This document shows, piece after piece, positions 1 to 63,029 of a stretch of DNA of 64,000 bases. Within the stretch, counting starts at the first letter, position 1. Each line of letters opens with the position of its first letter. Both the position numbers and the translations under genes were made by a program. The notes under the pieces were generated by a model. The model was not told where the DNA came from. It saw only the letters and a program-made list of their open reading frames with translations, and did not search any database. Origin of the DNA: Escherichia coli (lineage in GTDB: Bacteria > Pseudomonadota > Gammaproteobacteria > Enterobacterales > Enterobacteriaceae); the NCBI RefSeq assembly GCF_044324875.1, contig NZ_CP172185.1; one strand, given 5' to 3'.

Positions 1-1725
<1,725 letters not shown>

Positions 1726-1793
1726 GTCTGAATCCGGCCGACCCAAAATTTTCCCCCAAGCTTCTCCCGGTATCTTTTAAGAGTATTGATTAC

Positions 1794-3002
1794 ATGAACG
1801 ACACCGTTTTAAACGTAATCCCGGTGCCTGTACGCACTTGGGTGGCTATAGCAGCGCTCGGTATCAGTGCATTTTCGATTGTGACCAGCGAGCTTGCGCC
1901 TGTTGGCATGCTTAGTATGCTAGCAAAGGACCTGAACCAGACTGAATCGGACACGGACCTTGTCGTGACTGCATACGGCTGGGTTGGGGCTCTGGCAGCA
2001 CTTTTGTCTGGATTGATACCAGCGAGAATTTCACGTAAGTCTTTGTTAGTGACTCTTATGGTAGTGTTTGCTTTGTCTTGTGTGGCGGCGACACAGTCAT
2101 CACTCGATGACCCTATTTATGGGGGCGCGTATGACAGGCGCTTTAGCACATGGTGCTTTCTGGGCTTTGATTGGAGCAGTGGCTTCACAGCTTGTTCCGG
2201 CTGAAAAACTAGGACTGGCCACCTCAGTTATTTTTGGCGGCGTTTCGGCTGCCAGCGTTCTGGGTGTGCCACTGTCGAGTTTTATTGCGGATATGGCCGG
2301 GTGGCGGAGTGCGTTTACGGCGATTTCTCTGCTGTCACTTGCCGCCGCCTGTGCTCTATTCTGGACGCTCCCCACACTGACGGTGCCACAACCACTGAGG
2401 CTGCGTGTTTACTACGGGATATTCAAAAACCCGGTGCTCCTTTCCCTCTATGGTGCCACTGCCTGTATTATTTCGGCTCATTTTGCGGCATTCACTTACC
2501 TCCAACCACTACTGACGAAGACTCAGGAAGTACCGACGGCTTCGATTTCTGGCCTACTGCTGATGTCCGGGCTCTCCGGTCTGGCCGGAAATATCATTGC
2601 CGGAAAGCTGATCGACCGTCATATCAAAGGGCTGATTTTCGCTTCACTGCTCCTGAGCGCAGGTGCGCTCGGCATACTTGGTATGAGGAGCGCTGCACCA
2701 CTGCCTTTCTGGTTCACAGGCATACTGCTCGCAGTTTGGGGCGCGGGTATCGCCATTGTATTCGTTGGGTTGCAGACAGGTTGCTCCGTAGCGCCGGGGA
2801 TGCTGTACAACCGGCGTCAGCCATTTACGTTACAATTTTTAACGCAGCGATCGGCACCGGTGCGCTTGTGGGAGGCCAGGTATTAGCCGTAAAAGGTATT
2901 CAGGGTATGGCCTTACTTGCTGCGGGCATCATTGCATGCAGCATAGCTCTGGTCGCAATGCTGAAAAGCCCCGCGAATAAGCTCAGGCCTGAAAGGTCGT
3001 GA
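1794..3002 (+). pseudogene. MFS-type efflux transporter gene disrupted by two apparent frameshifts
   Basis: Three overlapping ORFs (1722..2204, 2068..2886, 2301..3002) in alternating frames each encode hydrophobic MFS-like segments; frame switches near 2100 and near 2815. Confidence 0.6.
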
Positions 3003-3370
3003 CGAATTCAAAAACGCATTAACCGACAGTAATTAAATGAGAGGGACGTGTCAGAAGAGGCTTCCCCTTATTTTATACGTCCAGTTCGGTAAAGAGTATT
3101 AGCCCACAGGACGAGGCTTATCCGAAACTACAACTCTGAAGGATTTAGTTAATCGCTTTAGAATTTCCAACTTCCGTTCCTCGCTCACAGCAGACCTTAA
3201 GATCTAGGAGGGAGTCCGCTCAGTGCCATGGGCGGACCTTAAGCTTCAGTAATTTGATTAGCACAATCCCTATGATAAATAGACTGGCCCCCTGAATCTC
3301 CAGACAACCAGTATCACTTAAATAAGTGATAGTCTTAATACTAGTTTTTAGACTAGTCATTGGAGAACAG

Positions 3371-3736
3371 ATGATTGATGTCTTAGGGCCGGAGAAACGC
3401 AGACGGCGTACCACACAGGAAAAGATCGCAATTGTTCAGCAGAGCTTTGAACCGGGGATGACGGTCTCCCTCGTTGCCCGGCAACATGGTGTAGCAGCCA
3501 GCCAGTTATTTCTCTGGCGTAAGCAATACCAGGAAGGAAGTCTTACTGCTGTCGCCGCCGGAGAACAGGTTGTTCCTGCCTCTGAACTTGCTGCCGCCAT
3601 GAAGCAGATTAAAGAACTCCAGCGCCTGCTCGGCAAGAAAACGATGGAAAATGAACTCCTCAAAGAAGCCGTTGAATATGGACGGGCAAAAAAGTGGATA
3701 GCGCACGCGCCCTTATTGCCCGGGGATGGGGAGTAA
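3371..3736 (+). CDS. insC: IS2 transposase OrfA (InsC)
   Basis: 121-aa product [41 protein letters not shown]... matches IS2 InsC. Confidence 0.9.
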
Positions 3737-4599
3737 GCTTAGTCAGCCGTTGTCTCCGGGTCTCACGTGCGCAACTGCATGCCATGGCCCGTCGGTCGAA
3801 GGACTGGCAGGATCGTCGGTGCAAGCGCAAGCCTGATGATACTGACGCGCTGGCCCGTATCCATACCGTTATCGGCGATCTGCCCACCTATGGTTATCGT
3901 CGGGTATGGGCACTGCTGCGCAGACAATCAGAAACTGACGACATGGCGGTGATCAATGCCAAACGCGTATACCGCATCATGCGTCAGAATGCGCTGCTGC
4001 TTGAGCGTAAACCGGAAATACCGCCATCGAAGCGGGCGCATACAGGGAAAGTGGCCGTTGGAGAAAGTAACCAGCGGTGGTGCTCTGACGGCTTCGAGTT
4101 CAGCTGTGATAACGGTGAAAAACTGCGGGTCACGTTCGCTCTGGACTGTTGCGATCGCGAGGCACTTTACTGGGCGGCCAGTAACGGTGGATATGACAGT
4201 GAAACCGTGCAGGACGTCATGCTGGGTGCCGTGGAGCGTCGTTTCGGTAACAGCCTGCCGACATCCCCAGTTGAGTGGCTGACAGACAACGGTTCAGCCT
4301 ACCGTTCTTATCAGACGCGTCAGTTCGCCAGAATGGTAGGACTGGAGCCTAAACATACGGCGGTACGTAGCCCGGAAAGCAACGGGATGGCAGAGAGCTT
4401 CGTGAAAACGATGAAGCGCGATTACATCAGCATCATGCCGAAACCCGACGGGTTAACAGCGGTAAAGAACCTTGCGGAGGCCTTCGAACATTACAACGAA
4501 TGGCATCCGCATAGTGCACTGGGGTATCGTTCGCCACGGGAATATCTGCGGCGGCGAACCAGTAATGGGTTAAGTGATAAAAAGTGTATGGAAATATAG
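3694..4599 (+). CDS. insD: IS2 transposase OrfB (InsD), DDE integrase core
   Basis: 301-aa ORF overlapping insC in a different frame (programmed frameshift arrangement); sequence matches IS2 InsD. Confidence 0.9.
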
Positions 4600-4610
4600 G
4601 GGCCAATCCA

Positions 4611-4967
4611 ATTGCACTGTTTCGAGGCTATCCGGCGACGATAAGAACTGACCAGGGGCCGGAGTTCACTTGCCGTGCACTGGATCAATGGGCCTTTGAG
4701 CATGGTGTTGAGTTGCGCTTAATCCAGCCGGGCAAGCCAACGCAGAACGGATTTATTGAGAGCTTTAACGGACGATTTCGCGATGAATGTTTGAATGAGC
4801 TCTGGTTCAGCGATATCGTTCATGCCAGGAAAATTATTAATGACTGGCGGCAGGATTATAACGAATGCCGCCCGCACTCCACGCTGAATTATCAGACACT
4901 GTCTGAATTTGCAGCGGGCTGGAGAAAGGGTCATTCTGAGAATGAAGATTCCGACGTTACTAACTGA
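4611..4967 (+). pseudogene. C-terminal remnant of an IS3-family transposase (OrfB), 5' part absent or replaced by IS2
   Basis: Frame continuing from the IS2 right end encodes ...[58 protein letters not shown]...RPHSTLNY, the conserved C-terminal part of an IS3-family DDE transposase. Confidence 0.7.
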
Positions 4968-27795: not shown

Positions 27796-27890
27796 TGGCG
27801 GAAGATCACAGGAGTCGAACCTGCCCGGGACCGCTGGCGGCCCCAACTGGATTTGAAGTCCAGCCGCCTCACCGGAGACGACGATCTTCC
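27796..27890 (-). tRNA. selC: tRNA-Sec (selenocysteine), anticodon UCA
   Basis: Minus-strand sequence GGAAGATCGTCGTCTCCGGTGAGGCGGCTGGACTTCAAATCCAGTTGGGGCCGCCAGCGGTCCCGGGCAGGTTCGACTCCTGTGATCTTCCGCCA matches E. coli selC; long variable arm. Confidence 0.95.
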
Positions 27891-62666: not shown

Positions 62667-63017
62667 AGTAAATAGCTGACTTATGGATGTGCTGGGGATT
62701 CTATGTATTTAGCTGTGGCTTTACCATTACTTTTCCCGTTTTTGACTTAAATAGCAATTTAGCCGCCAATTCTTGCTGAACATCTATACTTTTTTTGTAT
62801 TTTTATGCGTTTCATTGATTTCTGCAGTACGTGCAGGAAGGAATCGCAGAGCAACAGTGAAAGAATATGGTTGCTAATGATTTTATTTGATTGATTTCTT
62901 TATTGAAAATCAACAATGTGCTTAAAAATCATTCGGGTCGGATTGCCGCGAAAGAAGTGATACACTAGCGCGTCAATATCAGTGCGGTATCAGTATTCAG
63001 GTAGCTGTTGAGCCTGG

Positions 63018-63029
63018 GGCGGTAGCGTG
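63018..63029 (+). promoter_or_regulatory. ops element (GGCGGTAGCGTG) within the JUMPstart leader of the waaQ operon
   Basis: Exact ops consensus about 85 bp upstream of the waaQ start; known RfaH recruitment site. Confidence 0.8.

Follow-up and report, generated by a model that had tools for sequence, protein, structure and literature searches.

An MFS transporter pseudogene with two single-base frameshifts in an IS-rich selC island of Escherichia coli

SotB of Escherichia coli, whose structures are deposited as PDB 6KKI, 6KKJ, 6KKK and 6KKL, is the closest characterised relative (E=3.8e-47, residues 15-365) of the transporter sequence described here. Orthologues of the gene itself were retrieved from several sources. 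The intact copies at loci L008 and L009 (food and other metagenomes) show 93% nucleotide identity to it and that at locus L013 (Cedecea lapagei chromosome LR134201.1) shows 91%; the orthologue at L003, on a Pantoea plasmid, shows 77%. At L008, L009, L010, L011 and L013, the MFS gene lies ~60 bp downstream of a gene for a 327-aa aldo/keto reductase (AKR), and a LysR gene is located divergently upstream. The more distant L012 and the Pantoea locus L003 carry LysR and MFS genes and no AKR gene. In E. coli, a selC-associated island is known as AGI-3. Here, we describe a remnant of the AKR-MFS module in a 64,000-nt stretch of E. coli DNA (contig NZ_CP172185.1), referred to below as the window.

A 402-codon MFS_1 transporter sequence spread over three frame segments was found at 1794..3002 on the plus strand (Table 1). 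It is opened by the ATG at 1794, with a product beginning MNDTVLNV..., and its net length of 1209 bp is a multiple of 3, so that segments 1 and 3 are in a common frame. Three overlapping ORFs (1722/1794..2204, 2068..2886 and 2301..3002) are listed at this locus. When the intact protein P0001 was searched against the window with tblastn, exactly three HSPs in two frames were obtained. Segment 2 is given by gene callers as an ORF of 251-272 aa extending to TAG 2884-2886, and segment 3 terminates at the stop TGA 3000-3002. Dropping one base near 2100 and adding one near 2778 yielded a frame-corrected protein of 402 aa, which matched Pfam PF07690 (MFS_1) with 130 bits (cut-off 33.4; E=1.3e-37; residues 23-335). 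Moreover, hundreds of intact enterobacterial MFS proteins of 393-403 aa matched 98-100% of the corrected protein, the best with an E-value of 1.9e-219 and 92% identity. A Kyte-Doolittle scan, which is a crude method, revealed ~12 hydrophobic segments, as in the 12-TM MFS_1 architecture. No continuous ORF covers all of these helices, since the frame is shifted at 2099 and at 2778/2779. The three-frame pattern is far beyond chance, and the transporter sequence across three frames with two frameshifts that had been read in a preliminary description is backed by both the tblastn HSPs and the ORF list.

Table 1 Features of the transporter remnant and its borders in the window
Feature	Position	Strand	Frame or identity	Evidence
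IS100 (IS21 family) end, abutting the remnant; istA 157..1179	1..1266	-		ORF list; BEN2908/LH50-c/DP051 annotation
AKR remnant, C-terminal ~152 of 327 codons (ORF 1336..1725)	1267..1725	+		homology to L008/L009
MFS segment 1, ancestral codons 1-102, ~TM1-TM3	1794..2098	+		tblastn, alignment to L008/L009, hydropathy
HSP 1, P0001 residues 1-102	1794-2099		frame 3	tblastn
Perfect 6-bp inverted repeat GTCATC-ACTC-GATGAC	2096..2111	+		hairpin scan
Lesion 1, inserted A, +1 frameshift	2099	+		alignment to L008, L009, L013
MFS segment 2, ancestral codons 103-328, ~TM4-TM10	2100..2778	+	shifted frame	tblastn, ORF 2068..2886
HSP 2, P0001 residues 103-329	2101-2778		frame 1; 93.8% identity	tblastn
Lesion 2, 1-bp deletion, T lost	between 2778 and 2779	+		alignment to intact orthologues
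MFS segment 3, ancestral codons 330-402, ~TM11-TM12	2779..3002	+	original frame	tblastn, alignment
HSP 3, P0001 residues 331-403	2781-2999		frame 3 (original)	tblastn
ISEc27 (IS3 family, IS2-like), right border of the remnant, approximate coordinates	3280..4610	+		homology end, L004/L005 annotation

The two lesions were placed by nucleotide alignment to L008/L009, Cedecea L013 and Pantoea L003. At lesion 1, the window reads CAGTC[A]TCACTCG, compared with CAGTCTCACTCG or CAGACTCACTCG in the intact orthologues; at lesion 2, it reads CAGACA^GGTTGC, compared with CAGACATGGTTGC or CAGACATGGCTGC. Lesion 2 removes the T of a TGG codon (Trp329), a Trp codon that was found in all eight retrieved orthologue sequences, and puts the frame back to the original one. 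According to crude hydropathy, lesion 1 falls after TM3 (codon 102/103) and lesion 2 after TM10 (codon 328/329). Alignment to intact orthologues, which had been proposed as a check in the preliminary description, thus placed both indels to the base. The first frame switch had been located near 2100, in agreement with the inserted base, whereas the second had been located near 2815, ~36 bp downstream of the actual deletion; it was misplaced because both frames remain open over that region.

Past lesion 1, the frame from the native start runs for 34 codons and then meets TGA 2202-2204, giving a 136-aa product composed of TM1-3 and 34 out-of-frame residues. A compensated frameshift, in which lesion 2 rescues lesion 1, was considered and rejected: the frame entered at 2099 stops far before 2778, and lesion 2 cannot rescue lesion 1 because this stop intervenes. 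The opposite signs of the two lesions are a coincidence. A full-length protein might also be produced by programmed recoding (+1 near 2099 and -1 near 2778) or by transcriptional slippage, and both the restored net frame and the small hairpin at the first site could be taken as signs of it. However, 2766-2780 contains no X XXY YYZ slippery heptamer, 2097-2102 shows no prfB-type stop or rare-codon +1 context, and neither site has the A/T run expected for transcriptional slippage. The hairpin is just 6 bp and overlaps the shift site instead of lying downstream of it. Moreover, the intact orthologues encode the protein in one frame, and recoding is therefore not a trait of the family. Such an origin of a full-length product is vanishingly improbable, and the two indels are best taken as the lesions of a pseudogene.

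Lesion 1 coincides with a palindrome. A2099 is the exact base that perfects the stem of the inverted repeat; the ancestral sequence at this site is GTCTCACTCGATGAC, and the pre-insertion form in L008 (GTC-TC...GATGAC) is a quasi-palindrome. Template switching at quasi-palindromes is an established model of frameshift mutagenesis, known from work on T4 and on E. coli thyA. Among the 4752 possible single-base insertions in the gene, only 1.3% would make the added base part of a perfect stem of at least 6 bp with a loop of 3-8 nt. A quasi-palindrome template-switch origin of the A2099 insertion is plausible, for an observation made post hoc on a short stem, and the insertion is a neat, small-scale case in which a frameshift turns a quasi-palindrome into an exact one. 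Around 2778/2779, no repeat or palindrome was found that could account mechanistically for the lost T.

A megablast search against 5426 complete E. coli genomes found the gene in only 6 of them. One carrier, VE-V10-F, has only an IS3-truncated stub beginning at window 2782. The other five, BEN2908 (chicken, France), LH50-c (poultry, Switzerland), F404 (France), Z247 (human blood, China) and DP051 (human faeces, Netherlands), carry the 1209-bp copy with both indels identical and with 0-4 SNPs relative to the window. The flanks of the carriers vary, with IS100 present or absent and with IS66, ISEc27 or neither located downstream. Because the carriers differ in SNPs and in flanking IS elements, they represent independent sequences of one shared ancestral allele. 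No intact E. coli allele was found among the 5426 complete genomes. An 'E. coli' protein (P0022) was examined as a candidate intact allele and rejected as a different gene, since its identity is only 78%.

The pseudogene status is already on record. All five full-length carriers bear the RefSeq/PGAP label "MFS transporter; frameshifted", and the GenBank entry AAW51737.1, named "truncated Aec54", equals the sequence of the shifted middle ORF. Exact-sequence look-up in NCBI, ENA, Logan and JGI collections located fragment P0122 (the 160-aa form) on 77 contigs, P0123 (136-aa form) on 32 contigs and P0136 (251-aa form) on 137 contigs, and the segment 2 fragments P0133-P0137 occur in public collections. 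Additionally, P0122, P0133 and P0136 were deposited as separate proteins under the misleading names 'membrane protein of unknown function', 'inner membrane transport protein YdhP' and 'Arabinose efflux permease'.

These records bear on the possibility that both frameshifts are sequencing or assembly errors, such as homopolymer miscalls, and that the real gene is intact. Long-read assemblies often contain indel errors, and two shifts of opposite sign that keep the total length a multiple of 3 might suggest an artefact. However, the longest homopolymer within 10 bp on either side is 1 base at lesion 1 and 2 bases at lesion 2; five complete genomes of French, Swiss, Chinese and Dutch origin share both indels while differing in SNPs and IS elements; 'truncated Aec54' was entered separately with the shifted middle ORF sequence; and contigs that bear the fragments number more than 100 across ENA, Logan, NCBI and JGI assemblies. 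With sites outside homopolymers and recurrence across assemblies, sequencing error is excluded as an explanation, and an intact real gene is extremely improbable. The preliminary description had named homopolymer sequencing errors as an alternative, which fails in view of these short runs and of lesions that recur across laboratories. The locus thus shows what is expected of a pseudogene, with a frame disrupted relative to intact orthologues and a disruption reproduced in independent assemblies.

Individually expressed fragments of the gene might still be functional: they could reassemble as a split MFS protein, or a truncated membrane protein could have taken on a different role. Some MFS proteins, for example LacY, work when they are expressed as two complementary fragments. 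All carriers conserve an open middle ORF (2108..2886, TM4-TM10, 251-272 aa), and gene callers routinely report it, at 251-259 aa, with such calls on more than 130 contigs. However, a search for sigma-70-like promoters in 1150-3400 detected none, leaving no promoter-like site in or upstream of the remnant, and no Shine-Dalgarno-like sequence precedes ATG 2108 or TTG 2781. Reassembly would need three pieces, not two. Moreover, nearly all genomes with the neighbouring fos region have lost the block, and the SNPs among the copies are mostly nonsynonymous. Functional fragments are very improbable for these reasons. An Rfam scan gave no match in or near the transporter gene. That 1794..3002 represents a 12-TM MFS transporter gene (DHA1/SotB-like, probably efflux) fixed as a non-functional pseudogene in an IS-rich AGI-3-type island is, in our view, nearly certain, with the loss of function predicted from the reading frame by itself.

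The transporter gene is part of a larger remnant. Homology to the intact module starts abruptly at 1267, which corresponds to approximately AKR codon 176, and continues over the MFS gene and the sequence flanking it on the 3' side. None of the E. coli carriers has the N-terminal ~175 AKR codons (approximately the last 46% of the gene is kept), the promoter region or the divergent LysR gene, and PGAP labels the AKR remnant as 'aldo/keto reductase, incomplete, missing N-terminus'. At the AKR end (1718-1732), six extra bases are present (GGTGTTTGAGTCTGA compared with GGT------GTCTGA in L008/L009), which resemble GTYTGA duplicated in tandem and bring the stop codon forward by two codons.

On the left, the terminal sequence of IS100 (...CCGTTCGTGACA) ends at ~1266. 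In Z247, the AKR breakpoint is identical and no IS100 is present at this spot; the AKR truncation therefore predates, or is independent of, this IS100 copy. IS100 as the cause of the truncation is not supported by the Z247 breakpoint, and no clean target-site duplication was readable. The istA gene on the minus strand is a single open ORF of 340 aa in the window and is 'frameshifted' in the RefSeq records of BEN2908, LH50-c and F404. On the right, the block common to the window, Z247, DP051 and VE-V10-F stops at 3279, where ISEc27 starts in the window. ISEc27 contains the ORFs 3326..3736 and 3694..4599, and L004 and L005 are annotated with 'IS3-like element ISEc27 family transposase' at this position. 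The remnant enclosed between IS100 and ISEc27 is 2 kb.

At 3109-3116, the BEN2908 RefSeq sequence has an IS66-family insertion of ~2.7 kb, and the BLAST pieces overlap there by 8 bp, as expected of a target-site duplication. Since the window has no IS66 element at this site, it represents the 'empty-site' version, like LH50-c and F404. Directly after ISEc27, at 4584-4967 (+), there is an orphan integrase-core fragment that is the C-terminal part of another IS3-family transposase; it is labelled 'incomplete, missing N-terminus' in L001, L004 and L005 and is further IS debris.

The selC gene (tRNA-Sec) was detected in the window at 27800-27890 on the minus strand (83.8 bits), and the fos genes are also in the window. 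The assignment to AGI-3 rests on PMC3325963 together with selC in the window, and the remnant sits at the IS-rich distal end of an AGI-3-type selC island. Many genomes have the fos part without the transporter block, and far more genomes carry the fos region than the block. The rarity of the block (6 of 5426 genomes, one of them with a stub) is consistent with an ongoing erosion of dispensable DNA. A JUMPstart RNA element (RF01707, 55.2 bits) at 62991-63029 (+) is unrelated to the transporter. JUMPstart elements are located upstream of polysaccharide, haemolysin or conjugation operons.

For the age of the inactivation, we compared substitution patterns. The Nei-Gojobori omega was 0.24 for the corrected E. 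coli gene versus L008 and 0.13-0.17 among intact genes. Unique changes on the terminal branches numbered 29 synonymous and 17 nonsynonymous for E. coli, 20 and 16 for L008, and 41 and 12 for Cedecea, against a neutral expectation of ~1 synonymous to 2.7 nonsynonymous. The E. coli branch is thus similar to the intact sister branches. As this pattern is not clearly neutral, most of the divergence arose while the gene was under selection, before its inactivation. Either the inactivation was recent or the data have too little power to reveal decay. The E. coli copies differ from one another by four SNPs only, 3 of them nonsynonymous and 1 synonymous. In addition, the E. coli branch has Asp at position 55, where all of the orthologues compared have Gly. 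Gly55Asp and the three nonsynonymous SNPs among four may be hints of relaxed selection.

The ancestral function was approached through family models. The top NCBIfam hit of the corrected protein was NF002921 ('sugar transporter', SotB-type) with 245.6 bits; this is below the equivalog cut-off of 401, so the protein is a homologue of SotB and not an orthologue. Other models were rejected on their cut-offs: Cmx/CmrA chloramphenicol efflux (NF033135, 160.4 bits compared with a cut-off of 400), NepI (NF007578, 120.1 compared with 584) and AraJ (NF007498, 91.4 compared with 499). Judged by these matches, the ancestral protein is a SotB-like (DHA1-type) MFS protein. It is predicted to have been, plausibly, an exporter tied to a carbonyl-reducing enzyme.

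Taken together, we propose the following history. The ancestral gene was the distal member of a LysR-regulated two-gene module (AKR + MFS), whose intact form occurs in Cedecea lapagei and other Enterobacterales. In E. coli, the distal end of the AGI-3-type selC island received a fragment of this module, comprising the last ~46% of the AKR gene and the MFS gene without the regulator and promoter. The MFS gene acquired, or arrived with, two independent 1-bp lesions, the inserted A2099 and the T lost at 2778/2779. Translation from the native ATG would then end at 2202-2204 after TM1-3 and the 34 out-of-frame residues, and no transporter could be expected to form. The preliminary view of a decaying pseudogene amid a high density of IS elements holds well, as the indels are fixed in five genomes, the AKR gene is truncated, the LysR gene is missing, and IS100 and ISEc27 flank the gene; its term 'efflux-type' is reasonable by homology, given that the SotB-like model and the SotB structures match best. 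The locus should be annotated as one pseudogene and not as two or three ORFs named 'hypothetical membrane protein', 'YdhP' or 'arabinose efflux permease'. The remnant documents that the distal end of the AGI-3-type selC island consists of IS-bounded scraps of foreign operons, in this case a Cedecea-like LysR-AKR-MFS module. It is otherwise an ordinary IS-flanked pseudogene remnant that matters little beyond correct annotation.

In comparison with known systems, the nearest copy is APEC2908_RS19975 of BEN2908 ('MFS transporter; frameshifted'), which is 100% identical to window 1700-3100. Over 1-3116, the BEN2908 RefSeq sequence differs from the window only outside the gene, by 8 mismatches and 1 gap in the IS100 region. 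The counterparts in LH50-c, F404, Z247 and DP051 are 99.7-99.9% identical to the window and are alike in length and indels. The closest intact proteins are WP_126356720.1 of Cedecea lapagei (P0138, 393 aa) and P0001, from a food-metagenome contig (403 aa), each with 92% identity to the corrected sequence over the full length. At both of their loci, the gene order is the same as in the window, with the AKR gene followed by the MFS gene after a spacer of ~60 bp. However, these loci have a single open frame, a complete 327-aa AKR gene and a divergent LysR regulator, whereas the window copy has the +1/-1 lesions and is without the regulator and the 5' half of the AKR gene. SotB and the corrected protein share the 12-TM MFS_1 architecture, and the genomic association of the transporter module with AKR and LysR genes distinguishes it from SotB.
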